DNA of 64,000 nucleotides from a virus: positions 104,267-168,266 of IMG/VR virus record IMGVR_UViG_3300040856_003274; one strand, written 5' to 3'. Of this stretch, positions 25,906-63,998 are shown piece by piece. The first letter of the stretch is position 1, and every line of letters begins with the position of its first letter. The position numbers and the translations under genes are program-made. The notes below the pieces were generated by a model, which had not been told where the DNA came from, made no database searches, and saw only the letters and a list, made by a program, of their open reading frames with translations.

Positions 25906-25906
25906 C

Positions 25907-31815: not shown

Positions 31816-31870
31816 GAATAAAGCACCTATAAGATTGAGGGTGTAAGAAAACCTTTAGAGGGAGCGATTT

Positions 31871-32500: not shown

Positions 32501-32519
32501 GAGGTAAAGGGCAAATAGC

Positions 32520-36017: not shown

Positions 36018-36018
36018 A

Positions 36019-44400: not shown

Positions 44401-46805
44401 CAGTGTGTATGCCTAAGTTTGGTAGGCAAGACATACCTCTCCACCAGCGCACAGGCGACACAGACCCCGTGTTAGGCGGGCTACACCACCTGTTTTCAGA
44501 TAACACTGACCCTGCTAACGTGGTGTTTAATCTTATTGGCGGAGAGCCTAATGTTGCAGGAGGCGGTAATCTTGTACAACCTATCCTGTTTATTACCAGC
44601 CCTAACTCAGGTCTTTCTTATGGAGAAGCTGGCACAACAGGCGGGCCAGCCCATCCCTGTATTCAAGCACGTAGTTTCTCCTCTTCAAGTGTCCGATCTT
44701 CAGATGTTGGCATCGGGTTAAAGGGTATAGAGCTTCCTCCTCACTATGGGATAGCGAGGCTCTATGGTATTTATGAGCGTTCTGAATACGAGTCTAAGAT
44801 TGGCGACAATACGATTGGCGCATTTGAAGCAGACCGCATCACTCCCAAGACCAACGGCGCTAACGGTGTTGTAAGAAACTTGCTCCGTCTCGATGCTGAC
44901 AAGCAGACACTGTTCATCAAACAGGGCGGGGCTGAAGACTACACAAAAAATGCTGACGACCACACTTATATTATCCCTGCTAATGTAATCGACCATACGA
45001 GAGCTGTAAACTACGACTCCTCAGCCCCTAACTTTGAGGATTACGAGTATGTCGTTGAGTGTGTAGTGTTTGGCTTTGCTCGCGGGTTTATCAACAAGAA
45101 TAACCTTATCCTCGCCCGTAATGTTAACGGCGCAGGAGTGCAAATCCTAGACGTTGATCAGAACGACGCTGTAGACAGCACGCTGATTAATAACACCTTA
45201 GAGTTTGTAAACGTGCCGATGGCTATCCACGCTCCAGCCCCTAACGGGACACAGACGTATGTAGGCTATTCAAGACTTGTTTACCAAGGCGATCCTTACT
45301 TTACTTCAGGGATCACTACGGCACAAAAGAGAGACTTCCCCGTCAAGTACGGCAGACTCAGTGAAGAAAACCACGACTCTCTTAACATCCCTCTAACTCA
45401 GTTTAACGCTGACGGAAGCGATAAGATAGAGACACCTAACCTTAGGGCTTTGAGAGTCCTCGCTTCTGCTGACTTCTACACTACGCTAGGCACAGGCAAA
45501 GTCGGAGGTTCTTTCTACGAGGGTACTGTGCTCGACTGCGCACACAACGTCGGCTCTGCTTATGAGGGCTCGATGACCTCGATGAACGTGTTTAGCCAAA
45601 CGGAGGGCTCTGCTACAGACCTCAAGCCTGCGATAGCGATTAGCTTTGGTGGATTCTTTACAGGTCTACAGCTTTACTTACAGGCTGACCCTGCTAACCG
45701 CATTAATCTTGTGTTTACGGTAGGTTCTCAGACGATGACGGTGATCTTGTCCGAAGACACTATCTTGGATGGTAATCTCGGAGGGTCGGCTCTTGACGAA
45801 GCGTATGCGTGCTCAGTCTTAGCTACTAGGATTAACATTCAGCGCGTAACCGAAGGTTTCCCTGTCCAAGCCGTCGCGCTTGGTAACATTATAAAAGTCA
45901 CCTCAGAAGTTAGAGGTATGTCTGTCTCTTTTGACGTTAAGAGAGCAGCGGATCAGTCAAACGTGCTACCTCTTAGACTACTAGACCCGTTCACTTTTAG
46001 CACTCTAGCTCCACCGACCTTTGGCATTCTTAGAGGAATAGGTGATCTGCTCTCTGCAAGCATTTACCTGACGACCAGCTACGACTTTATCGAACCGAGG
46101 GTTGCGCTTAACGGAGGTAACGGAAACAGCACTCTTTCATTAAGCGGTTGCACTGAGCAGTTGCCGTTAGGTGCGCTTATCTTTGACTCAGATTTCTTAT
46201 CCGAAGACCCTGTTCAAAACGGCGCATCGTCGCTTGTAATAGAGCCCTCTCTCACTAAGTCCGTGTTCGCTAACACACCTCTTACGGGGACAGGCGATGA
46301 GTATACCTCTTTCTTAGGCGAGTCGGGTACAGTGATCGGTATGTGTGATGGTGCAGAGAACCAATACTCTGAGTTGTCTACAGTGTACCGTACCCACCGT
46401 GGAGGGTCAGCGTTCCTGTTGTCAGGCGAAAACCCAGGTGGCCCTATTTCTTGGTCTGCGGGCAACTTCCCTTCTTCCGCGAGCCCTATCCTTAAAGGTA
46501 AGATTATCGCAGGGAAGGCGCTCTTGGTACAAAACTATAAAGAGACTGCGTTTGCCTCAGATCACCCGGGCTCTGAGAGAAGCTACGGAGGCGAGCTCCA
46601 GCTCGTAATCTTAACAGGGGCGGTATTCGGAGGTGCTAATGTTAAGACTGACGGACTTAATCTTAACGGTGTAATCTCCCCTTCAGGGTTCGGTGAGGGC
46701 TTCTCAAGCGCCGAAAGGTATAGAATTCAGGGGCTCCCCATGCTCAAGCAGACTGACGATGAGCAGAAGTATCTAAACACAAAGCCCGCTCCATATTTGC
46801 CCTAA
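41406..46805 (+). CDS. Large baseplate/fibre protein, paralog B (1799 aa)
   Basis: VIWQEGKPPLDSELN, DFVFLEAW, YRYGNVE, QYRLRV, LGTVDGYSYAIP, RPDGVYSD blocks colinear with 32520-36017. Confidence 0.65.
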   Translation: MINFGSGVSRVLENFNRQFSNVIWQEGKPPLDSELNYMGQVSWDNLTSHVRSSAPSGFFLDPTNTKADYTTSAHYSNLFLLGQEGSPLTANVNGWIIPVCGTATDNLLNAIKLNPPPTSDSRIDFVFLEAWQALVSPNPDSVNKPSQDRIYRYGNVEYGGDNLTDDLTDPSVAFETTKRVQVQYRLRVYGFGQGGGSGVDLGVYVDGLDDPNIRAQGTATSAGGFTFNNMGEELGDASLWRAGDGDTSNDLGTVDGYSYAIPVCAIFRRNSSAFVAVSTNGSPNHNGATNRKPSVSELADPRTGAGELYEVRTISSLGVEDTGALQVGRVSNGVLEQSVEGTFLADDNFFDLSDSRFLKINGEIIEIDNVDTSVTPPTVNVISRARAATISSLHNGESALELYNTRPDGVYSDQITERDILDLRRGVSLRGWDYTQLLTHNLTRLLKNNLTTAFKTSGSGGGTEGVYTTEVSVLDNDSNINIEGADMLDGADGIRTIFSDTAHFQSDVTLLIDNDPSLNAGAVSGQYDTNTVWDIGADFKPDGWWNNINQGATPGFKNGTLINLYLGGEDGTDGARGTFRDGSTKEVRFVAPWEMEKEIGLSHPFKIKFTSVESTTVNNVEGSSYNGYLYPLAKYNFEYPFIVLGGLVHNTLRGNVASASLTNIHLDPQTGRFSVDLGIDFDSIRDLPILGGRQTLFEALTRKGEDLSGLGSILYLVLKGDDAAEDNNGVFRIVGLSNFVETYSVGNTFAELIPLSTNFNLNTGFSPLTGKTLTFEIRSQYLGFDDGGGFNSGIGSVVIGLTDINDKLSRTWFTDDKISGGNSDPLTTFPINSKIELTTTLMYAQARAGMARRPKDIFAVNVKNGGTGFIRNVASDIDSSFSTNAPAPTNERVYSAHGVQTWNALPSLGLETVRAPSMGGEVFGFTEQSRDSELFVDKGSKTIVFKPLQRKLMSLKALSYDAVLSTASLIGDLNYPNGNPKDPKGMFTNLKTMGVDVPSVCMPKFGRQDIPLHQRTGDTDPVLGGLHHLFSDNTDPANVVFNLIGGEPNVAGGGNLVQPILFITSPNSGLSYGEAGTTGGPAHPCIQARSFSSSSVRSSDVGIGLKGIELPPHYGIARLYGIYERSEYESKIGDNTIGAFEADRITPKTNGANGVVRNLLRLDADKQTLFIKQGGAEDYTKNADDHTYIIPANVIDHTRAVNYDSSAPNFEDYEYVVECVVFGFARGFINKNNLILARNVNGAGVQILDVDQNDAVDSTLINNTLEFVNVPMAIHAPAPNGTQTYVGYSRLVYQGDPYFTSGITTAQKRDFPVKYGRLSEENHDSLNIPLTQFNADGSDKIETPNLRALRVLASADFYTTLGTGKVGGSFYEGTVLDCAHNVGSAYEGSMTSMNVFSQTEGSATDLKPAIAISFGGFFTGLQLYLQADPANRINLVFTVGSQTMTVILSEDTILDGNLGGSALDEAYACSVLATRINIQRVTEGFPVQAVALGNIIKVTSEVRGMSVSFDVKRAADQSNVLPLRLLDPFTFSTLAPPTFGILRGIGDLLSASIYLTTSYDFIEPRVALNGGNGNSTLSLSGCTEQLPLGALIFDSDFLSEDPVQNGASSLVIEPSLTKSVFANTPLTGTGDEYTSFLGESGTVIGMCDGAENQYSELSTVYRTHRGGSAFLLSGENPGGPISWSAGNFPSSASPILKGKIIAGKALLVQNYKETAFASDHPGSERSYGGELQLVILTGAVFGGANVKTDGLNLNGVISPSGFGEGFSSAERYRIQGLPMLKQTDDEQKYLNTKPAPYLP

Positions 46806-46865
46806 TCTTTGAGAGATAGTGTATAGGTATAGCCCTATAACACTTAACCTCAAGGAGGAGTCGGC

Positions 46866-48476
46866 ATGGCGACTGTAGATGAACATCTATTGCCAACGTA
46901 TGAGAAGCTGAAGAAAATCAGAGAACGTAAAGACCTTAAGAGCCGAAAGCCCGCTTACCTAAGAGACAAGCTGATCTTAGCAAACGGCACTGAGGTAGAC
47001 TTTAATTTACGCTACTATCAAGTACAGGGAGTGCTCCACCTTGTAGCGATGAACCGTTTTCTTCTCGGTGACGATACGGGTCTTGGTAAGACCGCTCAAT
47101 CTATCGCGAGCCTCTGTTTCGTATGGGAGAAGAAGCCTGACACTAAAGTGATTATCCTCACTAATAAGTCTGCTGTGGAGCAGTGGGTAGGTGAGTTTGA
47201 GAAGTTTACGACAGGCATCACAGCGTTCTCTTGTAAGGGTACTCCTAAGAAGCGAGCAAAGGCGCGTGAGCAGTTTTTCAACACAGAAGGCCCTGTGGCT
47301 ATGGTTATGGGCTATCGGAGCGCCATAGGCGATTTTGAGCACTATCAAGACCTGCATGACCACATCATGGTTTTCGATGAGGCGACCGCTTTCAAAAACC
47401 CCTCTACTCAATGCCACCAAGTCTGTGCTCATTTGTCTAAGAACGCGAGCAGGGCATGGGCGCTCACAGCTACCCTAATCAAAAACAACCTTATCGAGGG
47501 TTGGGGTATCTACAAGGTGCTTGTGCCTAATCTATTTGGGAACAAAAACAACTTCCTAAACCACTACTGTATCACTCGTATGCAGAGCCTGCCTGGGTCT
47601 AGGAGACAAATACCTGTCATCGTCGGGTATCGCCCCAAAGACATTCAAGAGTTTAGGGAGAAGATCGACCCCTATTTCTTAGGTCGCCCTAAGTTTGAGG
47701 TCGCATCAGAGCTCCCACCGCTCACTAAGCGCACGATTAAGTGCGGTATGTCTAAGATACAGCAAGAGAAGTACAAAGAGGCTCTAACAGGCATCCTCGA
47801 AGTCGGTAGGGGTGATGAGGCAGAAGAGAAAGAGGTCACAAAGCTCACCGCAGTGACATACTGTCAAGTGATCGCAAACCACCCTGAGTTGATTGACGTG
47901 GATGGGAAGTCGGAAAAGCTCGATACGCTTGTAGAGCTTCTCTGTGAGGGGGATTTTGCAGGCGAAAAGGTTATTGTATTCTCTAGGTTTAGGAAGATGG
48001 TTGATATCATCGAGAGGACATTAGAGAAGAAAAGGGTTAAGACTTGCCGTATTACAGGCGCTGAGTCTGAAGAGGGTCGCGCTAACTCTCAGAAGCTCTT
48101 CCAAAACGTAGACTCTGGAGTTGACGTAATCTTAATCACATCAGCCGCCGCAGAAGCTGTAAACCTGCAAGCGGCTAGAGCGATTGTTTTTTACGATACG
48201 CCTTGGAGCGCAGGTGATTACTTACAGCTCTTGGGGCGCATGATCCGTATTGGATCAACCCAAGACCGCTGTTTCGCTATCCACTTGGTGTGTCGTAACA
48301 CGATTGACGTGAGGGTCATGCAAGTGCTCAACACCAAGATGGGGCTTGTAGAGAGCGTCTTAGGTAAGCGTATAAAGGGTGACGATGATGAGGAGGTGAA
48401 GCAAAATGAGATCATCGAGACGAGCAGTGAGCTTAACGACTTGTTCGATGCTCTGACAGAAGATGCTCTCAAATGA
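46866..48476 (+). CDS. SNF2-family (SF2) helicase/ATPase
   Basis: LRYYQ, LLGDDTGLGKT (Walker A), FDEAT (motif II), LTATLIKN, KVIVFS, AEAVNLQAA, FYDTPWS, QLLGRMIRIGS; RBS AAGGAGG. Confidence 0.92.
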   Translation: MATVDEHLLPTYEKLKKIRERKDLKSRKPAYLRDKLILANGTEVDFNLRYYQVQGVLHLVAMNRFLLGDDTGLGKTAQSIASLCFVWEKKPDTKVIILTNKSAVEQWVGEFEKFTTGITAFSCKGTPKKRAKAREQFFNTEGPVAMVMGYRSAIGDFEHYQDLHDHIMVFDEATAFKNPSTQCHQVCAHLSKNASRAWALTATLIKNNLIEGWGIYKVLVPNLFGNKNNFLNHYCITRMQSLPGSRRQIPVIVGYRPKDIQEFREKIDPYFLGRPKFEVASELPPLTKRTIKCGMSKIQQEKYKEALTGILEVGRGDEAEEKEVTKLTAVTYCQVIANHPELIDVDGKSEKLDTLVELLCEGDFAGEKVIVFSRFRKMVDIIERTLEKKRVKTCRITGAESEEGRANSQKLFQNVDSGVDVILITSAAAEAVNLQAARAIVFYDTPWSAGDYLQLLGRMIRIGSTQDRCFAIHLVCRNTIDVRVMQVLNTKMGLVESVLGKRIKGDDDEEVKQNEIIETSSELNDLFDALTEDALK

Positions 48477-49515: not shown

Positions 49516-51002
49516 ATATCTTACTTAGGTCTTGTATCCCTACTACCCCTTCAGAAGACAGTGAGCTATGCGCCCAAAATGCCCGTATTCTTCATGAGAG
49601 CGAGCTTGATTTCGGTCAGACTTCTGACGGCGCAATCTTTACTTTCATCAAAGACTTTGTGGACATTCACCAACACGCCCCCTCATCTAAGACATTAGAG
49701 GAGCACTTCTTAAGCTCAAACGACACCGCATCTATCGACAGGCTTCGTGTCTTAGAGACGTATACTCCCTTGTACAGAGGGGACTTTGAGGTGCGCCTCA
49801 AGGCTAAAGCTGAAGAGCGCAGAACGAAGCTCTCTTTAGAGCTTCTAGACGAAGCCAAGAAGATCATCACGCAAGGCATAAAAGTCAAAGAGGGGCGCAA
49901 AGAGAAGCTCTTACACGGCGCAGAAGACGCTATCCACTACTTGATGAACCGAAGCCACGACCTTGTAGCACCTGTGCTCGGCACTAAGCTGAGTGGAGAG
50001 GTTACGATGGACGGTCAAGACTTCTATGACAAGTACATGAAGACTAAGAATGACCCTCTAGCAGGGCTTGGTCAGATGACGGGCATCCAGCAAATGGATG
50101 CTACCTTGAGAGGCGCTAAGCCGAAACAGCTATGGACACATGCCGCTTTTACAGGAGGCTTAAAGTCAACCTTCATGTTAAATTGGGCTTACAATCAGGC
50201 AGTATATTACGGTCACGACAGTATCATCTTTTCGTTAGAAATGCCGTATGAGCAAGACCGAGATATCCTGTTCGCCATGCACTCTACAAATGCGAGTCTT
50301 GAGTCACAGCGTAAGAAATATAATATTAAGACGGGGCTCGATTATCAGAAGATCAGAGACGGCGAGCTTATGCCTAATGAGGAAGATTACTTACGGGAAG
50401 TGGTCGCAGACTTTAGCTCAGGAAAATATGGGAAAATCCATGTAGAGGTCGCCCCGCCTTCAGCCGAAAACTACACCGTCGCAGACATTAGGGCTCGCGC
50501 TGAGCTTATCCACAGCTCGTCTCCTTTAAGCCTCCTCTTCGTAGACCACGCGGGGCTCATGTCACCAAGGCATTACTCTAACTCGACAACGGAGCGCCTT
50601 AATGAGGTACTCCGCGACTTTAAGAAGATGAGTATGGGCTTCAATAAAGGAGAGGGGATAGCCGTAGTCTGCCTGTTTCAGATTAGCCGTGAAGGTTTTA
50701 AGTCAGCAGAGAAGAATGGCGGTAACTACAATCTAACTCACCTAAGCTACGCTAATGAGGCAGAACGCTCCAGCGATATTGTCACGACCTCTTACGTAGA
50801 CGATGACTTGAGGAAGCAAAACTTTGTGCGCTTCCAATGCCTAAAGTCTCGCGACAACCCACCTTTTGAGCCTTTCCACAGCTCAGTATATTGGCCTACC
50901 CGCAGGGTTCAAACTTGCACTCAACAGCCTCTAACGGATGCTGAAAAGCAATCTCTAGGTGATCAGATCGACACCGAAGAGATTGACCTTAACGACATCT
51001 GA
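49512..51002 (+). CDS. dnaB: Replicative DNA helicase DnaB-like
   Basis: TGIQQMDATLRG, AAFTGGLKST (Walker A variant), FSLEMP, LLFVDHAGLM, LFQISREG, ERSSD, LKSRD; ATGA overlap with loader stop. Confidence 0.88.
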   Translation: MNILLRSCIPTTPSEDSELCAQNARILHESELDFGQTSDGAIFTFIKDFVDIHQHAPSSKTLEEHFLSSNDTASIDRLRVLETYTPLYRGDFEVRLKAKAEERRTKLSLELLDEAKKIITQGIKVKEGRKEKLLHGAEDAIHYLMNRSHDLVAPVLGTKLSGEVTMDGQDFYDKYMKTKNDPLAGLGQMTGIQQMDATLRGAKPKQLWTHAAFTGGLKSTFMLNWAYNQAVYYGHDSIIFSLEMPYEQDRDILFAMHSTNASLESQRKKYNIKTGLDYQKIRDGELMPNEEDYLREVVADFSSGKYGKIHVEVAPPSAENYTVADIRARAELIHSSSPLSLLFVDHAGLMSPRHYSNSTTERLNEVLRDFKKMSMGFNKGEGIAVVCLFQISREGFKSAEKNGGNYNLTHLSYANEAERSSDIVTTSYVDDDLRKQNFVRFQCLKSRDNPPFEPFHSSVYWPTRRVQTCTQQPLTDAEKQSLGDQIDTEEIDLNDI

Positions 51003-52863: not shown

Positions 52864-53183
52864 TTAAGCAGATACCCAACAGATACAAAATACCTTTAGA
52901 CGACATAGAAAAGATCGTCATAACCATAGAAGCCTACCAAAAGCTAATCTCCTTTTATGAGGAGTGGCTCGAAAAGCATGGCCCTTACGAGTATGTTGAC
53001 GAGAGGATTTGCGCCCTTACCAGTGAGTATTGTGAATACTTGTTTGCTAAAGAGTATGCGAAAGAGGGGGCTCGAACATTTGGCTCGGATATGAACATCT
53101 ATAGGTCTGTAGAGAAGGACTTTAAGAGGCATTTCCCTCACTTAGAATTTATACCTCCGAGGAAGTCTGATGATAGAGATTAA
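52860..53183 (+). CDS. Hypothetical protein
   Basis: 107 aa, ATGA overlap with deaminase. Confidence 0.6.
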   Translation: MIKQIPNRYKIPLDDIEKIVITIEAYQKLISFYEEWLEKHGPYEYVDERICALTSEYCEYLFAKEYAKEGARTFGSDMNIYRSVEKDFKRHFPHLEFIPPRKSDDRD

Positions 53184-53721
53184 GACAGGAGATTGTGTCG
53201 AGCGCCTAAAAGACCTAGAAGATAACTCAGTTGACGCGGTGATTTGCGACCCACCTTACGGACTTAGGTTTATGTCTAAAGGTTGGGATGATATTGGTGA
53301 CGGCAGTCAGCAAAGAGAGTGGCATAGAGCATGGCTGACAGAAGCTCATAGAGTCTTAAAGCCTAATGGAGTCCTCAAGGCTTTCTCAGGGACTCGAACC
53401 TTCCATCACCTAATCGCGATGATGGAAGAAATAGGCTTCTCAGAGTTACGGATAGAGGCTTGGAGTTATGGATCGGGTTTCCCCAAATCTCACAACGTGG
53501 CTCTTGGTATAGACAAGAAATACGGTTACGGTAACAGAGGTAGGGCAATCCCTACTGCTTCTCGCTTCCAAGCCTCTGACATACAACAAGAAAACAAGCT
53601 CACCTCTAACCCTGTGGAAGCATACGAAGCTAAAACAGAAGCCTCCAAGCCTTTCCAAGGCTACGGTACGGCTCTAAAGCCTTCATGGGAGCCTATCTGT
53701 ATTGGAGTAAAACGATGTTAA
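53170..53721 (+). CDS. N4/N6 DNA methyltransferase, N-terminal (catalytic DPPY) part
   Basis: GDCVERLKDL..NSVDAVICDPPY, RVLKPNG, SGTRTFHH, YGSGFPKSHN, GYGTALKPSWEPI; ends before the SAM-binding motif. Confidence 0.85.
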   Translation: MIEIKTGDCVERLKDLEDNSVDAVICDPPYGLRFMSKGWDDIGDGSQQREWHRAWLTEAHRVLKPNGVLKAFSGTRTFHHLIAMMEEIGFSELRIEAWSYGSGFPKSHNVALGIDKKYGYGNRGRAIPTASRFQASDIQQENKLTSNPVEAYEAKTEASKPFQGYGTALKPSWEPICIGVKRC

Positions 53722-54301: not shown

Positions 54302-54741
54302 AAGATGACTTCATGGATCGGATAGACGACATTCTTAACCCGCCTAATGAAGAGGGCAACACAGGCTTCCCTGCTACCCTCTCAGCACAAGAGCTGCCGA
54401 GTAACATTAAGGTGCTCCTCGAACGCTTCTTATCTGCTTACGAAGCGAACAACTGTATCGACAACAGGGCTTCGGAGAAGCTCTTAGAAGATACCGCAAT
54501 AAGCGTCCTTCTCGAAATAGCTGAGAGGGTAAAGAGCGTCAGCCTTGAAAGCCACATCTTAAGATTAGGTGGTGAGATTATCTCTGCAAGCTACACATTA
54601 GAAGGGAGACTCACAGTATATAAGCTCCCTCCTAACATCATTGAGCCCCTAAAAACAGAGATCAAAATAAGGCTGTATAACCCAATGGTGCATGTTATTT
54701 TCGAGGGTGATACTCTCAAGGTATTAGAAGAGTCTGACTGA
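54298..54741 (+). CDS. Hypothetical protein
   Basis: 147 aa, RBS AAGGA, between MTase parts 2 and 3. Confidence 0.6.
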   Translation: MKDDFMDRIDDILNPPNEEGNTGFPATLSAQELPSNIKVLLERFLSAYEANNCIDNRASEKLLEDTAISVLLEIAERVKSVSLESHILRLGGEIISASYTLEGRLTVYKLPPNIIEPLKTEIKIRLYNPMVHVIFEGDTLKVLEESD

Positions 54742-55400
54742 TGATTGATTACCTTAAAGATATGATCTCACCGCCCTTGGAAGAGGTTGTTATATTAGAG
54801 GGTACGACTTCTGAGCTTAATCTCTCTAAGTTGCCTGACTGCTACGCGCATGGTTTAATCTTAAAGGGAGAGCCTACAGAAGAGGAGTCTTCTGAGATAT
54901 TCAGAGTCCTAAAGCCAGGTGCTCACGTCGCCATAATACCTGAAGGAAGCGGGGTTGGACACAGCGGTGTGATTTCTTTAGAAGATGCAGGCTTCGAGGT
55001 TAGAGACGCGATCTTTGTGGCAGAAGACCCTGACAGCTTTTATTACACCTCTAAAGCCTCACGGAGAGAGAGGGAAGCAGGGCTTAAAGAAGCTGAAAAG
55101 GGTAATAGGTCTAACCCACACCCTACCGTCAAACCTATAGACATCATGGAGTGGTGTGCGAGGGACATTGGAAAGAGTAGTCTCGTCGTAGACCCTTTTA
55201 TGGGTAGCGGTACGACAGGGATAGCTATGGCTAAATCAGGGCATAGCTTCATCGGCATTGAGCTCCAAGAAGAGTACGCAGAAGTCTCTCTTAAACGTAT
55301 ACAGCATTGGAGTCCTAACAGTGAGGCAACTTTTAATGGAGAGCCTGCTAAGAAAGACCTGACAGTATTAGGAGGACTCTTTAGTCTCTTTGGCGATTAA
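54741..55400 (+). CDS. DNA methyltransferase, SAM-binding part (lacks DPPY)
   Basis: FYYTSKASRRERE, HPTVKP, VVDPFMGSGTTGIA, FIGIE; degenerate N-terminal half with RVLKPG and LEDAGFEVRD but no DPPY. Confidence 0.8.
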   Translation: MIDYLKDMISPPLEEVVILEGTTSELNLSKLPDCYAHGLILKGEPTEEESSEIFRVLKPGAHVAIIPEGSGVGHSGVISLEDAGFEVRDAIFVAEDPDSFYYTSKASRREREAGLKEAEKGNRSNPHPTVKPIDIMEWCARDIGKSSLVVDPFMGSGTTGIAMAKSGHSFIGIELQEEYAEVSLKRIQHWSPNSEATFNGEPAKKDLTVLGGLFSLFGD

Positions 55401-55415
55401 GCGTCTATTATTCTG

Positions 55416-55446
55416 TCTCACCAAACACTGGATACAAGAGGTGAGA
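55416..55446 (+). promoter_or_regulatory. RBS-sequestering hairpin upstream of peptidase
   Basis: tctcacc / ggtgaga 7-bp stem covers most of the GAGGTG RBS; loop contains AAACAC. Confidence 0.45.
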
Positions 55447-55450
55447 TGAG

Positions 55451-56005
55451 ATGTTTAGTAAGCAAGCGAAGCGCGAAGCGATCCGCAAAGTGGCGAAGGC
55501 TAATGTTAAGCCTGTGCGCCAACGTACTCAATACAACTGCATGACCACAAGCATGGCGATGTGTTTAGAAGCTCTAGGCATCCCAAAAGCAGAGTGTGAG
55601 ATTAACGTTGTAAACAAGGTGATGGGTGCGATCCCCATGAAAGGTGCTTCATGGGAGCAGGCGCTCGCGTGTGCTCAGCATTACGGCATTCGAGCTACCC
55701 TCACAATGCCGAGCACTGTACGCCAGCTCAAAGAATGGACTGACGCAGGCAAGCCTGTAATGATCGCATGGAATCCTGAGGGTAGAGATTGGTCACACGC
55801 TTCTGTGGTATTTGACGTAGATGAAGACCTCAACGTCTACGTAGCTGACCCTAATATCCCCGACCCTGACGAGACAGTGAGAGTGCTCACTAAGGGAGAG
55901 TTTTATCAGAAGTGGTACGAGAAATGGCCTAACTACTTGGTGCGTAGACCTGCGCTAATGCTGGACTTTGAGATCACCCCTGAAGGCACACAGGCGATGA
56001 GGTAA
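55451..56005 (+). CDS. C39-like (papain-fold) cysteine peptidase
   Basis: Q-x5-C (RQRTQYNCMTTSMAMCL), GKPVMIAW, SHASVV, YVADP catalytic pattern; basic N-terminal leader with RKVA. Confidence 0.8.
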   Translation: MFSKQAKREAIRKVAKANVKPVRQRTQYNCMTTSMAMCLEALGIPKAECEINVVNKVMGAIPMKGASWEQALACAQHYGIRATLTMPSTVRQLKEWTDAGKPVMIAWNPEGRDWSHASVVFDVDEDLNVYVADPNIPDPDETVRVLTKGEFYQKWYEKWPNYLVRRPALMLDFEITPEGTQAMR

Positions 56006-56011
56006 GAAGTT

Positions 56012-58354
56012 ATGACAAGCCCGTTAAGATTAAGAAGAGATTACGGTGAAGACAGAGTAGCCACGGAGCTTAACGAAGACTCTTTCGAGTCTCTCTTCAA
56101 CAACCCTCCTGATAGGATTTCTTTGCCTTGGGGGTCACCTGCCAAGCCTAATCTATGGAAGACTAAGCGAGTTATATATCGTGCGCTAAAAATCTTAAGT
56201 TACTCTATTGAAAGCCCTGCCCTGTCAGAGCCCTTACGTCTTTATTTTGTGCCAGGGGAAAATAAGGTTACTAAATCACCAAACGTGAAAATAAAGCTCT
56301 ACGACTCACAGGATATTATCCTTTATAGCAGGGTCTTTGAGCCCTCTAATCTTTACACCGTAAGTAAGACGCTTCAGCTATTTTGGCATTACTTAAACGA
56401 CGACGATGAAAAGTTTAAGAAAGATTACATTACCATCCCTAAGATAGCTTCTTCAGAAGAGCCCTCTGCTTATGAGCATATGAGCACCCGCCCAAGCACA
56501 ATACCTTTACCTTGGGGCAATCCCGCCAAACCCAACATATGGAAAGCTCAGTACCAAGGGGGGTCACGATATGTCGTAACAAGCCCTGTGCTCTCTACGG
56601 CTTACACATATATCTTGATTGTGGATAAAGACGTAGAGAAAGTCTCTCTCATAGCTTTTGATCAAGAGGGTAGAGCAAATGAGGTCTACATATATCCTTT
56701 CTACGATATGTTCAAAGATTTTACTCTCCACGGCATATTGCGCATCTTTTGGAAAAGGATGTGGACTGAGAGAGATCGAATTAGTAGATACCTCACTGTA
56801 CCTAAGGTAGCTTCACCACAAAGAATCCCTGCGGTCATTACGCTGAACAACTTGCCTGAGACTCTTTCTCTTCCTTGGGGCGACCCCTCTAAGCCTAATA
56901 TGTGGAAGACTAAAAAAATAGGGTCTGACCTTTACAAGGTGACCAGCCCTGCGCTCAAGCCTAACTACTTTTATACTTTAAGGCTGTCCCCTCGCTCATT
57001 CGAGTTTTCAGCACTCTCTACACGTATTAACTATAGCATGTATGACTACGAATGGACTCTAGACGAAGTTGAGCAAGACACTTTAGAAGAGCTTCTAGAG
57101 ACGTTTTGGAAATACATGAGGAGCTACTCAAATAGACATGGGGGGTCTAAGGGCATCAATAAATACCTCACTGTGCCAAAAGTAGCTTCCTCACAGGATA
57201 TCCCTGCGGTCACTGCGCTGGACAACTTGCCTGCGATGCTCACTCTTCCTTGGGGCAATCCTCCGAAGCCTAATATGTGGAAAGCGCATCAATGGTTAGG
57301 GGGGAAATATACGGTAGAGAGCCCTGTACTCGACTCTGAGTTTGGCTATCAGCTAAATTTAGGCCGCAATCTTTCTAGTAGGTTTAGGGTAAGTTTTAGC
57401 GCCCTCCTCAACGGCAACAAGCGGGAAATACACAGTATGTATATCCATAAGAGAGTCCTTGAGGGGGTGAGCCTAAATGATGTCTTAAAACAATTTTGGT
57501 TAAATATGTGGAACAGTGAGGAAGGTACGATCAAAAAATACCTTATAGTGCCTAAGGTAGCGTCCTCATCTGCTTTAACCGTCGAAGACCTCTTTAAATT
57601 TACTCCCTATACCTTTGAGCTACCGTGGGGTCATCCGATTAAAAAAAACATATGGTCAGTAAAGAAAATAAGTGAGCTTACCTCTTACGGACTTACTTTG
57701 ATTTACGAGGTAGAGTCTCCTCTACTGAAGCACCCTATCTACTTCCACATGGATGCTCCTGACAACAATGGTAAGGTAACTATCGAGGTTAGAGAGGGTA
57801 GCTCATGGGGGGGCTCGTATTATACTCACTTCTTTAATGTCTCAGACTCTTTCTACTCCATGTCTCTCGAAGTTTACATGCGCGGAGTATGGAACAGTCT
57901 TACGCACACGAAGAAGTTGAAGCCTATACTTTTAAGTAAGGTAGCATCACATAACCCTACGTGTATCAACGACATCATTAAACACAAGCCCAAAACCTTT
58001 AAGCTAGCGTGGGGTATTCCTGCTAAGAAAAACTTGTGGAAAGTTAGCCTTAAGCACTCGGTTTTCCTACCTCGCGGTGAGAATGAGATTGTATACACAA
58101 TCCAATCTCCTGTCTTAAATCCTCACTTATCTATAGAGTTTTTGGTAACTGGTGAGTCCGTAAAGATTACTGTTAGAGTAGGGTATTCGGGAAACATACT
58201 CTTCAATATACTTTTTTACTTCAAGCACAGTAAGTCTCTAAGCCAGCCTCTAGACATTTTCACAGAGGCGGTGTGGCGCTACTTAATGAATAATAATCTA
58301 CTGCAAGAGCACCTCAAGCCTAATATCAAGGTAGCCAATACCCGTAAGCTCTAA
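56012..58354 (+). CDS. Polyprotein A: six tandem diverged WGxPxKxNxW domains delimited by [KR][VI]A[STN]
   Basis: Boundary motifs at 56054 (RVAT), 56441 (KIAS), 56804, 57179, 57554, 57938 (KVAS), 58328 (KVAN); units of 121-130 aa. Confidence 0.85.
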   Translation: MTSPLRLRRDYGEDRVATELNEDSFESLFNNPPDRISLPWGSPAKPNLWKTKRVIYRALKILSYSIESPALSEPLRLYFVPGENKVTKSPNVKIKLYDSQDIILYSRVFEPSNLYTVSKTLQLFWHYLNDDDEKFKKDYITIPKIASSEEPSAYEHMSTRPSTIPLPWGNPAKPNIWKAQYQGGSRYVVTSPVLSTAYTYILIVDKDVEKVSLIAFDQEGRANEVYIYPFYDMFKDFTLHGILRIFWKRMWTERDRISRYLTVPKVASPQRIPAVITLNNLPETLSLPWGDPSKPNMWKTKKIGSDLYKVTSPALKPNYFYTLRLSPRSFEFSALSTRINYSMYDYEWTLDEVEQDTLEELLETFWKYMRSYSNRHGGSKGINKYLTVPKVASSQDIPAVTALDNLPAMLTLPWGNPPKPNMWKAHQWLGGKYTVESPVLDSEFGYQLNLGRNLSSRFRVSFSALLNGNKREIHSMYIHKRVLEGVSLNDVLKQFWLNMWNSEEGTIKKYLIVPKVASSSALTVEDLFKFTPYTFELPWGHPIKKNIWSVKKISELTSYGLTLIYEVESPLLKHPIYFHMDAPDNNGKVTIEVREGSSWGGSYYTHFFNVSDSFYSMSLEVYMRGVWNSLTHTKKLKPILLSKVASHNPTCINDIIKHKPKTFKLAWGIPAKKNLWKVSLKHSVFLPRGENEIVYTIQSPVLNPHLSIEFLVTGESVKITVRVGYSGNILFNILFYFKHSKSLSQPLDIFTEAVWRYLMNNNLLQEHLKPNIKVANTRKL
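56789..57282. repeat. 119-nt diverged direct repeat pair (56789-56907 and 57164-57282)
   Basis: Ungapped, 22 mismatches by hand count (~82% identity); spans YLTVPKVAS junction to WGxPxKPNMW. Confidence 0.85.
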
Positions 58355-58365
58355 TTCTATACATA

Positions 58366-61116
58366 TTAGAGACAAGAATACAGACAGGTAGACCACACAC
58401 ACCCTGTCTGCTCAATGTGCTCACTGAGATAAGCCTTAATCTTGTCCGAGTCTGAGGTCTTACGCGCTAAGAGCTTGTTGATAAGCATGGCTGAACGGAT
58501 TTGCAAGTCATTAATGTTGCTCAGACAGCGTTTAACGGTTCTCTCATCATATCCGTACATGGAGGACGCGATCTTGCTGAGAGCCTCACTATAGATGTCT
58601 TTATGGCATTGTACGAACGCTTTGACGAACGGGCTACCGCTCTTCTCTGCGTGTGCTCGATAAAACTCTAGGTGCTTATCCCCTTTGCTCTTCTGCTTAG
58701 AGCAAAGAGTCCTACAGTATTTTTTGAGCTGGGATACCGCGAGCTCACAATCCTTTTGGACTTTCTTAGTGTAGCCGTAGCGCCCGCTTGCAGAAGCAAC
58801 CTTAACATTAGGGTTGAGTATGTGTTTTGTGAGCCCCTTACTCACCAAATCATTCCACAGGAAACTTGTGAAAGACTCGAAAGGCTGTTCTAAAATAGGA
58901 TCGTCCTTTCCAAGGTTCCAATACGTCAAGCCCATAACTTTGTCTTTATATTTCCCTATTCCGTAGGGGTTCAAAATGTTAATGTTGACGTAATAACTTT
59001 TAGGGCTACTTTTTATCCTTAGCTCTAAGCTAGTGTTTGGTTTTAGCACAGGGGACTGGATGTGATAAAAATCCGTACTGCCTCCTGATTTTAAATCAGC
59101 CTTCCACAAGTTTTTCTTAGGGGGGTTGCCCCACGCGAGCTCTATTGCTCTCGGTCTACGAGTAAAGACTTCTCTTGTCGTTGCGTAAGGCTCCCTAGAG
59201 GCTACTCTAACTCCAGGCTTAAGTATAGGTGTCCCACCCGTAAGAGGGTGCTGGCTTGCCTCATGTGCTACACCTCGCCATACTTCCTCCATAAAAGTAT
59301 CGAAGGGTAGGTCTAAGTTAGGGTGTTCATCGTCAAGCCGATTAAAATATAAGGTCTTCCCTATCTGATTATTCTTCGTTATGAGACGGACTTCTACTTC
59401 AGAAACAGCTCTGTAAACATGGAACATAATGCTCAAGTCAAGATTTAAGGCAGGAGATTTAACCCTGTAATAAGTCTGGTTTCGAGTCTCATTTTCTTTC
59501 ATTACCTTCCACATATTCTTCTTAGCAGGAGTCCCCCACGCTAACTCGAAAGTCTCAGGTCTTTGCTTAAAGAAGTCTCTTAATGTGTATGAGGGCTGTG
59601 AGGCTACTTTTGTGTTTGGCTTGAATAAGAAGCCGAAAGATTTAACTTTTATCTCTCGGTTAACTACGTCCCACAAATGCTTCATAGCGATATCGAGAGA
59701 CGTATTATAAGTTTCTTTATATAGCTGGGTAGACTTTATATGTCTCCTCGTCATTAAATCATCTCTGTAGCCAACGTATATCCCTATACTGTGCTTATTT
59801 TTGTTTAATGTAATACTGAGAGCAGTAGTTAGTATAGGCGACGTTACTTTATAATCAACTCGGTCTTTACTTCTACCTTCACAAGTAACCTTCCACATAT
59901 TCTTCTTAGCAGGAGTCCCCCAAGCTAACTCAAAAGTGTCAGGTTTGAGCTCCATAAGCTCTCCTAATGTAGAAGGTGACTCTGAAGCTACTCTAACCCC
60001 AGGCTTAAGGACTTTAGTGTGTAAACTGCCTCTAGCCTCCCACAGTATCCTATCCCATGTACCTTCCATCATCTTATCGAAGTCTGCCTCAGGAACGGGA
60101 AAAAATGAGATGAAATGGTCAAAATTATCAGACTTGACGTGAGGTAAGTTTACAGCGACCCTAACGTACTCATTAACCTGCCCAGCCGCATCCTCTTGCT
60201 CGAAGAGAGTGAATGAGATATTTATAGGATTTAAGAGAAAGGGCGAGTTTATAACATACAGTCTCTTATGACCCTGACTTGTATTATTCTCCTTGTATAC
60301 TAGCTCTGTTTTCCACAGGTTAGGCTTAGCAGGTTTACCCCATTTGAGTTTAATCGACCTGTAATCTCTCAAGAACAAGTCTCTTAGCGTAGAAGGAGAC
60401 TCTGAAGCTACCTTAATGTGGCGATCCACTACGTTGAGGGTAGAGGCTTTCTTCTTTGTGCGCTTGCGGCGCTTCTCCTCCATGCTCTTAGCGATGCCTT
60501 TAGCGATGTTAGGGCGCTTAGGGAAGTAAGTGCCTTTATCTTTCTTGCATCGAGGAGAACCTGGGCGCTTAGAGCAGTACCTAGACCACGCAATCGCGTA
60601 AGCCTTACCTTTCTCATTAGAGGGAATATCCTCTGCCGAGCCGTAACCTTTCTGCTCTGCATACTCTTTAACGTAACGGTCTATAGACTTAGGGTTAGGT
60701 TTTCTCTTTTTAGCCTTGGTCTTCTTCTTAGAGGCAACCTTGGTGTTAAAAAACACCGCTTGGTTCGTATTGTTCAAATTAATATTCTCCCACACTCTCA
60801 CCAACGCTTCCTCTAGCGTAACGTATTGAGGTATCTTTAACAATGAAACGAGATTAACACCGTTATCCGTACAGTAAACATCAACTATAACGGGTTGAAC
60901 GCCTGTCCACGCAAACTTCATCATTAAAGACCGATAGCCGTTCTTTACGTTCAGCACAGGGCTTTTGATCTCATAATAGAGAACCCCTCCGTTTAAAGGA
61001 GCGTCTTTCGGAGCTGACGCTAGCTTGCAACTCCACATATTAGGCTTGGGAGGAGTCCCCCAAGGAAGCTCTAGCTTTGGAGGCATTGCCTTTAATATTT
61101 GTGTAATCCCAGCCAT
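58366..61116 (-). CDS. Polyprotein B: five WGxPxKxNxW domains, one basic ChaB-like module and two YGY-x7-C modules, delimited by [KR][VI]AS
   Basis: Boundary motifs at 60730-41, 60403-14, 59983-94, 59599-610, 59197-208, 58792-803, 58564-75; RBS AGGAG. Confidence 0.85.
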   Translation of the reverse strand: MAGITQILKAMPPKLELPWGTPPKPNMWSCKLASAPKDAPLNGGVLYYEIKSPVLNVKNGYRSLMMKFAWTGVQPVIVDVYCTDNGVNLVSLLKIPQYVTLEEALVRVWENINLNNTNQAVFFNTKVASKKKTKAKKRKPNPKSIDRYVKEYAEQKGYGSAEDIPSNEKGKAYAIAWSRYCSKRPGSPRCKKDKGTYFPKRPNIAKGIAKSMEEKRRKRTKKKASTLNVVDRHIKVASESPSTLRDLFLRDYRSIKLKWGKPAKPNLWKTELVYKENNTSQGHKRLYVINSPFLLNPINISFTLFEQEDAAGQVNEYVRVAVNLPHVKSDNFDHFISFFPVPEADFDKMMEGTWDRILWEARGSLHTKVLKPGVRVASESPSTLGELMELKPDTFELAWGTPAKKNMWKVTCEGRSKDRVDYKVTSPILTTALSITLNKNKHSIGIYVGYRDDLMTRRHIKSTQLYKETYNTSLDIAMKHLWDVVNREIKVKSFGFLFKPNTKVASQPSYTLRDFFKQRPETFELAWGTPAKKNMWKVMKENETRNQTYYRVKSPALNLDLSIMFHVYRAVSEVEVRLITKNNQIGKTLYFNRLDDEHPNLDLPFDTFMEEVWRGVAHEASQHPLTGGTPILKPGVRVASREPYATTREVFTRRPRAIELAWGNPPKKNLWKADLKSGGSTDFYHIQSPVLKPNTSLELRIKSSPKSYYVNINILNPYGIGKYKDKVMGLTYWNLGKDDPILEQPFESFTSFLWNDLVSKGLTKHILNPNVKVASASGRYGYTKKVQKDCELAVSQLKKYCRTLCSKQKSKGDKHLEFYRAHAEKSGSPFVKAFVQCHKDIYSEALSKIASSMYGYDERTVKRCLSNINDLQIRSAMLINKLLARKTSDSDKIKAYLSEHIEQTGCVWSTCLYSCL
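59504..59944. repeat. 57-nt direct repeat pair (59504-59560 and 59888-59944)
   Basis: 54/57 identical, first 35 nt identical; encodes P[ED]TFELAWGTPAKKNMWKV. Confidence 0.9.
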
Positions 61117-61169
61117 GTCTTATAACTCCTGTCGGCTAATGTGTTTATCGACAGGAGTTATAAAGACAT
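61115..61169 (-). promoter_or_regulatory. RBS/start-codon-sequestering hairpin upstream of polyprotein B
   Basis: 15-bp perfect inverted repeat ttataactcctgtcg (61120-34) / cgacaggagttataa (61149-63), extendable to 20 bp with one bulge; covers AGGAG and part of ATG; 14-nt loop begins ATAAACAC on minus strand. Confidence 0.75.
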
Positions 61170-61475: not shown

Positions 61476-63998
61476 TTACTTAAACGACTTGTAGGTTACG
61501 AGGTCAATCACCCCATCAAGTATCTCAGAGTTGTACTTTTGAACCGCCAAACTATTAAAGATTTGGTTGTTCTTGTTCTCCTCTGCGTCACTGATGGTAA
61601 AGCAGTCACCCTCATTACTCAACTTAGACACGAAGTCGTTAATGTTAAGAAGCGCCTCTGAAGGCTCAGGAGCCTCCTCGGTAAGCTCCTCGACGTACTG
61701 GTCAATAGAGAGAGACGCGTTCTTAACCCAAGGGAACATACCAGCCCGCGCCTTATCTTCACAGTCCTTATTCTTCGCGAAGTCAGCGAGGTCTGCTTTA
61801 AGCCAACGGCTCGGATCACCTCTATACTCACTAAGACTCTCAACCATCTTAGCCTCAACAGTTTTACGGCTGAGGTTATCCTCTGAGTCCGTAAGGTCGA
61901 AAGACAAGTCATCGAGAGAAATGTCGTGCTTAACCATTGCACCGCTCTCACCCTTAATCGGAGTACGGATGAGATCGACGTAAGCGTCGAAGTAGTTACC
62001 CTTACCGCGCATGATCGCTTTCAAATCCTTAACAGGAGGCACTTGAGCACAGTGGCGGGCGATGACCTCTCGCACCTTCTGATAAGAAATGTCCTCAGGA
62101 GAGAGCACCTGCATAATCTCGCTCTTCGCCTCACCTGTCTTGTTAAGGAAAGCACTCAAGCCTCCTACAGGGTCGTCTTCGTTGCGGTTCATTGCAGTGA
62201 AAACTTCCTTAGCCTTCTCTGCTCCAGCAGAGGATGACCAACTGAGAACCTTATCTTCACCTTTCTTCCCTTTCATCTTAAGCGCAGGAACACCTGTGAG
62301 CTTAACATTAAGGACATCGCGCCTGTTCGTCTTCTTTGCTTGGAAAACGGTGTTGTATTCCTCAACAACCTGCTCGTCGGTAAAGGCTTTAGGGTCATAG
62401 TCGTAACTATTGCCTGAAGCCTCACTAATCTGAGTGAGGAAGTAATCAACAAGCTCTCTTACATCAGCAGGAGGGTTATTTGCGTTAAGAGACTCATCAA
62501 CCTCTGACTTGAGGGCAAACATCATACCCTCTTGAGTGACTCCCTGTTTCTTATAAACAGACTTACGGAAGCTACCGAAGTTAGCTCTACCGATAGTGGC
62601 GACTCTGCCTGACAAGACACAGTACATAATCGCCTCGTAAGCCTGTCTTAAGATATCAGGGTTACCGCCGAGCTTAGTGTAGTCATAGCTCTCTTTACCG
62701 TCTTTACCTACTTTGACGTTACTTGAGCGCATAGCTTGGACACGGCGGAAAGAGTCTTTCCATCCTGAGATAGTATTCTTAGACAACTGTGAAGAGAACC
62801 CGTAAGAGCAGAGAGCCGCTTTAGCCTCCGTCTTAGGATCACAGTCGATCTTAGTGATACCAAACTTCTCCGCGACGTTAATCTGAGAGATCAGCAGGCG
62901 ATCAAGAGCGCCGTCAGGGATACAGTCGTTATCTTGGAAACGCAGTGAGGCGTTATACATGCCGAGCTTAACATTACCCTCAGCATCCTGATAGCGGTAG
63001 AACACTCGCTCCATAGACCCGAACGGTGAGTTGAAGCCCTTAACATTAACAGACATCATGCCTTCTTCAATGAGAGTCGCGCCCTCAGGGAGCTTGGCGT
63101 TTTGGCGCACCGCGTTAACAGAGTCCTCACCAACCTGAAGGTTGACGTTCACGTCCATACCACCCTTTAGACCGTTAAGACCGCTGAAACCTGACATGTC
63201 AATCAGGTCAGCCGCTGTAGGTACTGAAGGCAGTCCGTCAAGCTGAGCACTAATGTCTACGTTAATCTCAGCTTCTGCGTTCATTAAGTCCGTAGCACTC
63301 TTCTTAGACCCTCCGACAGACACGGTAGCCTCATTAAAGCGCCCCAAGTCTTCAGAGATTCTAAGAGATCGGATCGGCTCAGCGTTAATCGCACGCTGTC
63401 TTTGATCATTATCCTTCAAGCCACTGCTGATAGGCGCAAGTGAACCGATAAACGCTTGGTTTTGAAGAGATAGCGCCTTACCGCCAACCTTCTCTTCAGA
63501 TGAGAAATACTCTTTACCAAGAGGAGCTTCTCCGTCTTCATCGGATTCAGTGAGCTGAGTAGACCCTTGAATAACCTGAGCAAACAGATCGCTGTCTGAC
63601 TGCTCAAGGTACTTGCGGATCGTATCAACAGAAGAAAGGAGCCCGCCAGCGTTGCTGTCAAGCGCCTCGTCCATCTTCTCAGCGAGGTGGCCTTTAATCG
63701 CGACCTCAAGACCCATACGCACAGCATAAGCGGTCTTCTTATCTTCACTTGAACCATCAGCCTCACGGACAGCTTTCGGCATCTCTCCGATATTTGGCAT
63801 CGCGTTGGAGATTTCCTCAAGTGTTCCGCCAGCTTTCTCAATGAGCTTATTAGCTAAGCTGAGCAACTCCTCGTCTGAGAGCTTATCAACCTGCTTGTTT
63901 TGCTCTGAAGCGTCAACGTAATCTTTCTCATTCGCGAAAACGAGATCGACGGTGTACTCTTGGACGCGATCAGGCTGACCTGTACGCCAAGCACGCCC
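61476..63998 (-). CDS. Large protein, 5'-truncated by window edge; contains end of an SF2/SNF2 helicase C-terminal domain
   Basis: Frame stays open from 63866 to the edge and reads GRAWRTGQPDRVQEYTVD (helicase motif VI-like), followed by ~820 aa of unrecognised sequence. Confidence 0.65.
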   Translation of the reverse strand, partial: GRAWRTGQPDRVQEYTVDLVFANEKDYVDASEQNKQVDKLSDEELLSLANKLIEKAGGTLEEISNAMPNIGEMPKAVREADGSSEDKKTAYAVRMGLEVAIKGHLAEKMDEALDSNAGGLLSSVDTIRKYLEQSDSDLFAQVIQGSTQLTESDEDGEAPLGKEYFSSEEKVGGKALSLQNQAFIGSLAPISSGLKDNDQRQRAINAEPIRSLRISEDLGRFNEATVSVGGSKKSATDLMNAEAEINVDISAQLDGLPSVPTAADLIDMSGFSGLNGLKGGMDVNVNLQVGEDSVNAVRQNAKLPEGATLIEEGMMSVNVKGFNSPFGSMERVFYRYQDAEGNVKLGMYNASLRFQDNDCIPDGALDRLLISQINVAEKFGITKIDCDPKTEAKAALCSYGFSSQLSKNTISGWKDSFRRVQAMRSSNVKVGKDGKESYDYTKLGGNPDILRQAYEAIMYCVLSGRVATIGRANFGSFRKSVYKKQGVTQEGMMFALKSEVDESLNANNPPADVRELVDYFLTQISEASGNSYDYDPKAFTDEQVVEEYNTVFQAKKTNRRDVLNVKLTGVPALKMKGKKGEDKVLSWSSSAGAEKAKEVFTAMNRNEDDPVGGLSAFLNKTGEAKSEIMQVLSPEDISYQKVREVIARHCAQVPPVKDLKAIMRGKGNYFDAYVDLIRTPIKGESGAMVKHDISLDDLSFDLTDSEDNLSRKTVEAKMVESLSEYRGDPSRWLKADLADFAKNKDCEDKARAGMFPWVKNASLSIDQYVEELTEEAPEPSEALLNINDFVSKLSNEGDCFTISDAEENKNNQIFNSLAVQKYNSEILDGVIDLVTYKSFK

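Follow-up and report, generated by a model that had tools for sequence, protein, structure and literature searches.

Organization of the locus

Near the end of a 64,000-nucleotide (nt) stretch of viral DNA, termed here the window, lie a gene for a C39-like peptidase and two convergent genes for proteins built of tandem, highly divergent copies of one domain. The window represents positions 104,267–168,266, i.e. the final 64 kb, of the 168-kb IMG/VR virus record IMGVR_UViG_3300040856_003274 (also labelled G000), which has a CheckV completeness of 40%. The two proteins are called polyproteins A and B and the repeated domain the WG unit. Here we consider whether the peptidase might cut the polyproteins at a short motif found at every domain boundary, and weigh this against other explanations.

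The peptidase open reading frame (ORF; P0001) encodes 184 amino acids (aa), is on the plus strand (55451–56005), and stops 6 nt upstream of polyprotein A (P0002; 56012–58354, plus strand, 780 aa). Polyprotein B (P0003; 58366–61116, minus strand, 916 aa) is convergent with polyprotein A, and 11 nt separate the two stop codons. Polyprotein A starts with a 17-aa leader, MTSPLRLRRDYGEDRVA (56012–56062), which closes with the first RVA↓T site; the arrow denotes the position of presumptive cleavage. The leader is followed by six WG units (56063–58336), each closing in K-[VI]-A: A1 (56063–56449), A2 (56450–56812), A3 (56813–57187), A4 (57188–57562), A5 (57563–57946) and A6 (57947–58336), all on the plus strand. 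A C-terminal tail of 5 aa, NTRKL, comes after the last KVA and is followed by the stop codon (58337–58354).

Polyprotein B, read from the minus strand throughout, begins with unit B1 (residues 1–128; 60733–61116). Next to it is a highly basic module that is not a WG unit (residues 129–237; 60406–60732) and that has KVA↓S on either side. Units B2–B5 follow (58795–60405; B2, 59986–60405; B3, 59602–59985; B4, 59200–59601; B5, 58795–59199), and the protein ends with two Cys-containing helical modules, also unrelated to the unit (residues 775–850 and 851–916; 58369–58794), with KIA↓S between them. The basic module has a net charge of +25 and an isoelectric point (pI) of 10.4, and it recurs in database proteins P0030 and P0042; the pair of Cys-containing modules is also carried by P0036. 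No Pfam family matched the basic module or the Cys-containing helical modules, and no Pfam domain was found in either polyprotein.

The window was read once before, in a first-pass annotation made from the letters and a list of ORFs without database searches. That annotation described two convergent genes with stops 11 nt apart and 6 and 5 units of 121–140 aa, a C39-like peptidase 6 nt upstream of polyprotein A, and 14 boundaries sharing a motif that does not depend on the domain family; ORF coordinates, motif counts and the Pfam comparison given below bear it out on these points. The genome-wide extent of the arrays (8 ORFs, 36 units), the reading frame shared by the peptidase and polyprotein A, and a rival protease of the ClpP type are additions to that first reading.

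The boundary motif

The unit motifs [LK]xWGxPxKxNxW and SPxL are each found in 6 copies in polyprotein A and 5 copies in polyprotein B. The boundary motif [KR][VI]A[STN] occurs seven times in each protein and covers all 14 module boundaries, 12 of which read [KR][VI]AS. When residues are shuffled, mean expectations are 0.09 for A and 0.19 for B, with maxima of 2 and 4, respectively. The motif is not confined to WG units, as it also borders the three non-unit modules of polyprotein B (residues 129–237, 775–850 and 851–916), and in database relatives too it lies next to unrelated modules. Across the 8 array ORFs of the record, every unit junction is [KR]-[VIL]-A-[ST]. Outside the arrays [KR][VI]AS is found 6 times in 47,879 aa, where 4 are expected.

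Codons at the motif vary synonymously, and therefore the signal is at the protein level and not at the DNA level: Lys is AAA in 9 cases and AAG in 25, and Val and Ala each use four codons. A DNA-level conserved recombination site at the boundary was considered and is ruled out by this variation. The junction Ser is encoded by TCN in 35 of 37 cases, though AGY makes up 37% of Ser codons genome-wide. Judged by codon usage, the bias indicates that the junction Ser was never permitted to change.

The ends of the arrays are informative. Terminal units, both in the arrays and in database relatives, almost always close in the motif plus a tail of 2–12 residues (e.g. KVASSV, KVASKDF and RIASRI, each directly before a stop codon, and KLASED), and single-unit genes, e.g. 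P0035 and P0040, retain motif and tail as well. Because the motif with its short tail is present at terminal units and in single-unit genes, and the motif is found beside unrelated modules, it behaves as a processing site and not as a linker; the first-pass annotation had proposed as much.

Related signals elsewhere are faint. The motif shows no proteome-wide enrichment in the 90%-complete relative G003 (14 vs 13.8 expected), where naive ORF calls look unreliable. The tail tag RVAxRY is rare in the present genome (3 vs 0.67 expected), and [KR]xA[ST] is found within the first 12 residues of non-array ORFs 10 times vs 3.1 expected, which is a weak lead only.

The WG unit

When cut after Ala, the 11 units of the window are 121–140 aa in length. 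Their alignment has 13 invariant columns (L, W, G, P, K, N, W, Y, S, P, L, the helix W and the terminal A), and identity to the first unit is only 21–32%. Over the 36 units of the record, mean pairwise identity is 25% and the maximum is 44%. On the evidence of these sequences the units are old paralogues.

An AlphaFold2 (AF2) model of unit A4, based on the 36-unit alignment, has a predicted local distance difference test score (pLDDT) of 86.3 and a predicted template modelling score (pTM) of 0.77. In the model, six to seven antiparallel strands are accompanied by the WG loop and by a helix at each terminus, the N-terminal one being short; the block with the last five residues (..PKVA) averages a pLDDT of 54. 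Modelled singly, the unit forms a self-contained domain of beta-sheet plus helix, and its KVA tail is floppy. The low pLDDT of the PKVA tail argues against a continuous solenoid that needs KVAS structurally, which the first-pass annotation had named among the arrangements that would refute its proposal. That annotation also described hypervariable domains with conserved LxWGxPxKxNxW, SPxL and helix W but divergent cores. Alignment and model support this view, with a constant scaffold formed by the N-terminal WGxPPKPNxW loop, SPxL and the C-terminal Trp helix, and with a hypervariable beta-sheet face.

Within the searches made, the WG domain matches no named family or solved fold, in keeping with the first reading. 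Pfam and PHROGs gave no match to the unit. Foldseek against the PDB gave no convincing relative (best E 6e-3, template modelling (TM) score 0.34), and the best VIA-align score against 48,161 chains (Z 5.5; Fbxo7 FP domain, levivirus coat) does not rise above noise. The ESM Atlas gave only TM scores <0.5, and a feature search of the Atlas was also without result; the best match in BFVD has an E value of 1.5e-2. A unit profile, a search proposed in the first-pass annotation, was run against 1.84 billion cluster representatives and matched only 41 proteins, of which 36 have E values below 1e-10. Almost all of these proteins have 2–8 units, and the junction motif is the same. A tblastn search with polyprotein A against 50,697 GenBank phage records gave no match.

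The C39-like peptidase

The 184-aa ORF matches Pfam PF13529 (Peptidase_C39_2) with an E value of 8e-10 and 39.9 bits (cut-off 24); its score with PF03412 is 18.9 bits, under the cut-off of 22. Catalytic candidates predicted from conservation are Q24, C30, H116 and D133, in this order along the chain. Across 64 homologues no variation is seen at H116 and D133, and conservation of Q24 and C30 is at least 90%. The AF2 model has a pLDDT of 89.5 and a pTM of 0.85, and its best Foldseek matches are the peptidase domains of ComA, LahT and PCAT1 as well as PeiR, with E values of 4e-7 to 1e-6 (ComA: E 5e-7, TM by target 0.82, root mean square deviation 2.8; LahT, 6mpz: E 1e-6, TM by target 0.80). Family match, catalytic set and papain-like fold are all present; by sequence and by model the ORF is a C39-like (clan CA) cysteine peptidase, and a stand-alone one.

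The peptidase has no ABC transporter domain. Conservation points to Q-[VI]-[MV]-A↓S and [KR]-[VIL]-A↓S as its candidate sites, not to Gly-Gly. Solved C39 enzymes cut after Gly-Gly, or Gly-Ala/Ser. The small residue at P1 (the position just before the cut) fits the family, and cutting with Val, Ile or Met at P2 would make this a new specificity among C39 enzymes. PeiR, the best structural match, is a pseudomurein endoisopeptidase; such enzymes act on an Ala-Lys isopeptide bond.

The peptidase is more widespread than the units. It is found in more than 319 proteins of approx. 60–99% identity on large phage contigs, and a homologue in LR745208.1 (485 kb) is 42% identical. In a seawater RNA library, two contigs of 151 nt are identical to the peptidase gene and the polyproteins are not represented; transcription is thereby not demonstrated. 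Prediction of a complex between the peptidase and a 55-aa junction segment gave a score of 0.01, which is no evidence either way.

A link between peptidase and motif

The C-terminal tails of peptidase homologues provide a connection to the boundary motif. In 101 homologues with such a tail, a fixed position after YLVRRPA..E.EITPDG.Q has V/I at P3 in 76, M/V at P2 in 73, Ala at P1 in 91 and Ser at P1′ in 81. The motif [KR][VI]A[SA] is found 33 times in homologue tails vs 2.8 expected, i.e. it is 12-fold enriched, and many tails close in ...RVAS plus 8–12 residues, the layout seen at polyprotein ends. The homologue of LR745208.1 closes ...PLMTRRDYGAVDDQ and P0133 closes ...PLSLRPDYGSLERVAARWTRR, with the stop codon following in both.

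In the present genome the peptidase ORF closes ...GTQAMR-TAA exactly at the position occupied by Q-V-M-A↓S in homologues. Polyprotein A shares the peptidase frame and starts two codons (E, V) past the stop, 9 nt on (TAA plus the two codons, 56003–56011, plus strand), such that the combined reading is ...QAMR, stop, EVMTSPLRLRRDYGEDRVA↓TELNED. In addition, homology connects the polyprotein A leader, PLxLRRDYG...RVA, with the C-terminal tails of the peptidase homologues. The shared frame and the homology of the leader to peptidase tails imply that polyprotein A is the evolutionary equivalent of a peptidase C-terminal extension. A translational stop has taken the place of the presumptive autocleavage site of the peptidase. 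Programmed read-through of the TAA into polyprotein A was also considered and rejected as unlikely: a 99%-identical relative has two consecutive stops at this junction, and the record has no tRNA genes.

Relatives have the peptidase gene between a giant tail-sheath gene (1722–1894 aa, PF17482) and TerL. In the genome described here, two arrays follow the orthologous sheath gene, at the position where relatives have the peptidase. Taken together, the comparative evidence suggests that the [VIM]-A↓S site is tied to the C39-like peptidase.

The sheath homologue itself (G000 29298–34982; L015:9298–14982) is unusually large, 1894 aa with a PF17482 C-terminal domain, and is conserved at 40–47% identity in relatives.

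Genome-wide arrays and their evolution

The unit profile matches 37 places in the 168-kb record. Six further ORFs outside the window are built alike, giving 8 array ORFs in all, with 36 complete units plus two truncated stubs; together they account for 8.8% of the record. The stubs are in arrays D and E (G000 39553–39612 and 49629–49694), where the last KxAS is followed by 19–21 aa of another unit, SSNLRVMWGNPVKSNLWKV and SSEGLKAMWGTSAKPNIWYYR, before the stop codon. They look like remnants of truncated units. Joints at the WG motif in metagenome contigs were set aside, as their sides are short and they are probably due to repeats.

When compared with the close relative L001, the units show ratios of nonsynonymous to synonymous substitution (dN/dS) of 0.27–0.74. 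Values for the non-unit modules of the same ORF are 0.03–0.07 (basic module, 0.06; Cys-containing helical modules, 0.07 and 0.03), and those for neighbouring genes are 0–0.17; the dN/dS of the units is thus elevated. Unit number differs as well. Polyprotein B of L001 is 653 aa in length and has three units as compared with five here, B3 and B5 being absent, and at the end of L001 polyprotein A the site is KVAS, with another module of approx. 90 aa after it.

The locus has been found in several estuary and seawater metagenome studies. A 14.4-kb contig from an independent estuary metagenome carries the whole locus at approx. 97–99% identity, and in this contig 85 nt within unit A4 (57451–57537) are swapped for 79 unrelated letters, which represents a local hypervariable patch.

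A proposed processing system and its alternatives

The adjacent C39-like peptidase probably cuts the polyproteins and so releases a diversified library of small, mostly basic proteins. We infer cleavage, the identity of the cutting enzyme and the role of the units from sequence comparisons. The host of the system would be a very large aquatic myovirus-like phage that carries a protease-plus-substrate pair, in which the stand-alone peptidase would recognize [KR]-[VIL]-A↓S and cut between Ala and Ser. Cutting within the window would free 11 WG units and 3 other modules; record-wide, it would free at least 36 units from 8 polyprotein ORFs. Each unit is predicted to be an autonomous domain of approx. 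120 aa, usually basic, with a constant scaffold and a hypervariable beta-sheet face. Polyprotein A probably descends from the C-terminal extension still carried by homologous peptidases, the stop codon now being at the site that is Q-V-M-A↓S in the homologues. Once freed, the units might serve as a diversified set of small binding proteins with a role at the time of infection or shortly thereafter, and might be carried in the virion together with the DNA. Packaging, injection and an anti-defence role are offered as hypotheses.

Two variants can be added. One has a papain-like protease of the C39 type, instead of a serine prohead protease, as the virion-associated processing enzyme of this clade of large aquatic phages, the substrates of one lineage having grown into a packaged and injected arsenal of more than 40 diversified basic mini-proteins, in effect a combinatorial library of binders encoded by the phage; we regard this fuller version as rather unlikely. 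The other stems from the nearest structural neighbours of the peptidase, which include an isopeptidase and a transpeptidase. By analogy, an acyl-enzyme arising at ...KVA could react with an amine, with the result that units are conjugated to a target rather than released.

It should be pointed out that several findings weigh against cleavage by the C39-like peptidase. There is one peptidase gene and there are 8 arrays, six of which are more than 65 kb from it. WG units are absent from seven related records in which the peptidase is present, and thus the pairing is not obligatory; the units would then represent a lineage-specific expansion of substrates. Unit B1 has an internal KLAS (residue 31), and therefore any specificity would have to be context-dependent. 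For the C39 family, a P2 residue as bulky as Val, Ile or Met would be unusual. The basic character of the units (pI >8 in 30 of 35) is a modest bias, since other ORFs of 90–160 aa also have a pI >8 in 57% of cases. Mean unit dN/dS is below 1, and relaxed constraint is an alternative explanation for it. To these can be added a second candidate protease in the genome.

This second candidate is a ClpP-family protein of 216 aa, encoded between arrays D and E (G000 44021–44671; L016:4021–4671), with a Pfam E value of 1e-26 and a match to phrog_94, 'head maturation protease', with an E value of 6.5e-40. Perhaps the polyproteins are cut at KVA↓S by such a ClpP-type head-maturation protease inside the prohead, or by a host protease, and the C39-like peptidase is otherwise employed. 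Prohead proteases such as T4 gp21 and phiKZ gp175 do process internal and scaffold proteins at short motifs. However, the ClpP-type gene is just downstream of the genes for thymidine kinase, dihydrofolate reductase and thymidylate synthase, and not in a head module. In addition, six records (including the 485-kb LR745208.1) with no ClpP, S78 or S77 match have peptidase homologues that retain the A↓S site and the [KR]VA[SA] tails, and therefore the motif tracks the C39 enzyme; as most of these records are fragments, the evidence is weak. Overall, we consider cutting by another enzyme unlikely. The first-pass annotation had looked to assemblin and HK97-type prohead proteases, a link for which no support was found: neither PF04586 (S78) nor PF03420 (S77) is matched in G000, G001–G006 or LR745208.1, with the reservation that these models may miss divergent members, that the S77 control matched nowhere and that most records are fragments.

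A different view is that the proteins are not cut at all and function as beads on a string, i.e. as a fibre, a decoration protein or a multivalent binder, with K-V-A-S as a conserved linker or domain cap. Phage fibres and decoration proteins often contain variable domains in tandem, and cleavage is itself a prediction made from sequence, which also counts against processing. Yet a linker would be needless at terminal units and in single-unit genes, which keep the motif and its short tail. The motif also borders unrelated modules, its Ser codon class is frozen, the same motif closes the peptidase domain in approx. 100 homologues, and the tail of the unit model is disordered. These features make an uncleaved string of domains quite improbable. 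That the arrays are decaying or selfish repeat expansions without a function of their own, as elevated unit dN/dS, truncated stubs at the ends of two array ORFs and varying unit number between close relatives might suggest, is very improbable, given that all 36 units keep the same 7–9 invariant residues and an intact frame at 25% mean identity, that unit dN/dS is below 1, that the arrays take up 8.8% of the record, and that the locus is kept in independent estuary and seawater metagenomes.

If cleavage by the C39-like peptidase is true, this would be, to our knowledge, the first known tailed-phage system in which a dedicated cysteine protease frees dozens of diversified single-domain proteins at a four-residue site that can be read from sequence. 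No description of the system was found in the literature searched, and as far as can be told the architecture is undescribed. The peptidase and its motif constitute a directly testable protease/site pair. The units form a domain family without a matched fold, and their combination of a constant scaffold with a variable face is suggestive of a natural library of binders. The system also provides a handle on a conserved, unexplained C39-like gene in hundreds of large marine and estuarine phage contigs, and with approx. 9% of the record the arrays represent a major investment for a phage.

Other genes of the record

The gene adjoining polyprotein B (61476–63998, minus strand, continued in L001:3238–10473) encodes the C-terminal region of a protein that exceeds 2400 aa and is cut by the contig end. 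It has weak SNF2/helicase-C matches and may be a DarB-like giant protein. Upstream of the peptidase, matches to an N6/N4 DNA methylase are split over two ORFs, 53170–53721 (profile positions 1–92) and 54741–55400 (159–219), with unrelated ORFs between them. The start of the window (2–7585, minus strand; G000 101499–111851) is part of one 3450-aa ORF in the structural region, and nearby ORFs of 1138–1799 aa have only weak baseplate or virion PHROG matches.

Outside the window, an actin-like protein of 345 aa (G000 25306–26343; L015:5306–6343) matches Volactin, PF25216, with an E value of 1.8e-76; its counterpart in relative L029 shares 64% identity. Also encoded by the phage are a eukaryotic-type topoisomerase IB catalytic core (G000 46597–48168; PF01028, E 1e-13), an ATP-dependent phosphoenolpyruvate carboxykinase (G000 90329–91966; E 2e-206), a phosphoglucomutase/phosphomannomutase (G000 35024–36406) and a UDP-glucose dehydrogenase (G000 2566–3792).

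Comparison with known systems

The C39 'double-glycine' peptidases of bacteriocin exporters and of exporters of ribosomally synthesized and post-translationally modified peptides (ComA, LahT, PCAT1) have the same fold and the same Gln/Cys/His/Asp set as the phage enzyme. They also offer a parallel in which one protease serves many diversified substrates with a short conserved site and a small P1 residue, the precursors (e.g. the prochlorosins) joining a conserved part for recognition to a hypervariable cargo. The phage peptidase differs in that it is stand-alone and not fused to an ABC transporter, and in its site, [KR]-[VIL]-A↓S or Q-V-M-A↓S rather than Gly-Gly. Its candidate substrates are folded tandem domains of approx. 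120 aa, whereas those of the exporters are short peptides with a leader.

Internal proteins of T4 (IPI–III, with a capsid-targeting sequence) and the inner-body paralogues of phiKZ are small and often basic paralogues matured at a short motif, and some counter host defence after injection. These are encoded by separate genes and are processed by serine prohead proteases at LxE or S/A/G-x-E sites; the WG arrays, in contrast, are known here from genes alone. Among eukaryotic viruses with double-stranded DNA, African swine fever virus (pp220/pp62 with pS273R) and adenovirus (adenain) have clan-C cysteine proteases that cut structural or core polyproteins at a short motif with a small P1 residue. 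The protease families are different, however, and the products are unrelated structural proteins and not a diversified library of paralogues.

In layout, polyubiquitin and the polyprotein antigens of nematodes are similar, with spacerless head-to-tail repeats that are cut at a fixed C-terminal motif and with a last repeat capped by a few residues. The enzymes that process ubiquitin, the deubiquitinases, are papain-like cysteine proteases. Ubiquitin repeats are identical, whereas WG units have approx. 25% identity, and there is no sequence or fold relationship between the two.

By analogy, the closest concept is that of the polyvalent proteins, large phage proteins for which processing by an associated peptidase and delivery of the units at invasion have been proposed (Iyer, Burroughs, Anand, de Souza and Aravind, 2017; PMC5512222). 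A further likeness is the SNF2-type helicase protein of more than 2400 aa that adjoins the arrays here. Polyvalent proteins combine several different conflict effector domains, heterogeneous and enzymatic, mostly with a zincin metallopeptidase (PMC5512222), a combination that polyproteins A and B do not have. The arrays described here consist instead of paralogous units of one family, apparently non-enzymatic, with an explicit motif at each junction and with a separate, papain-like peptidase.

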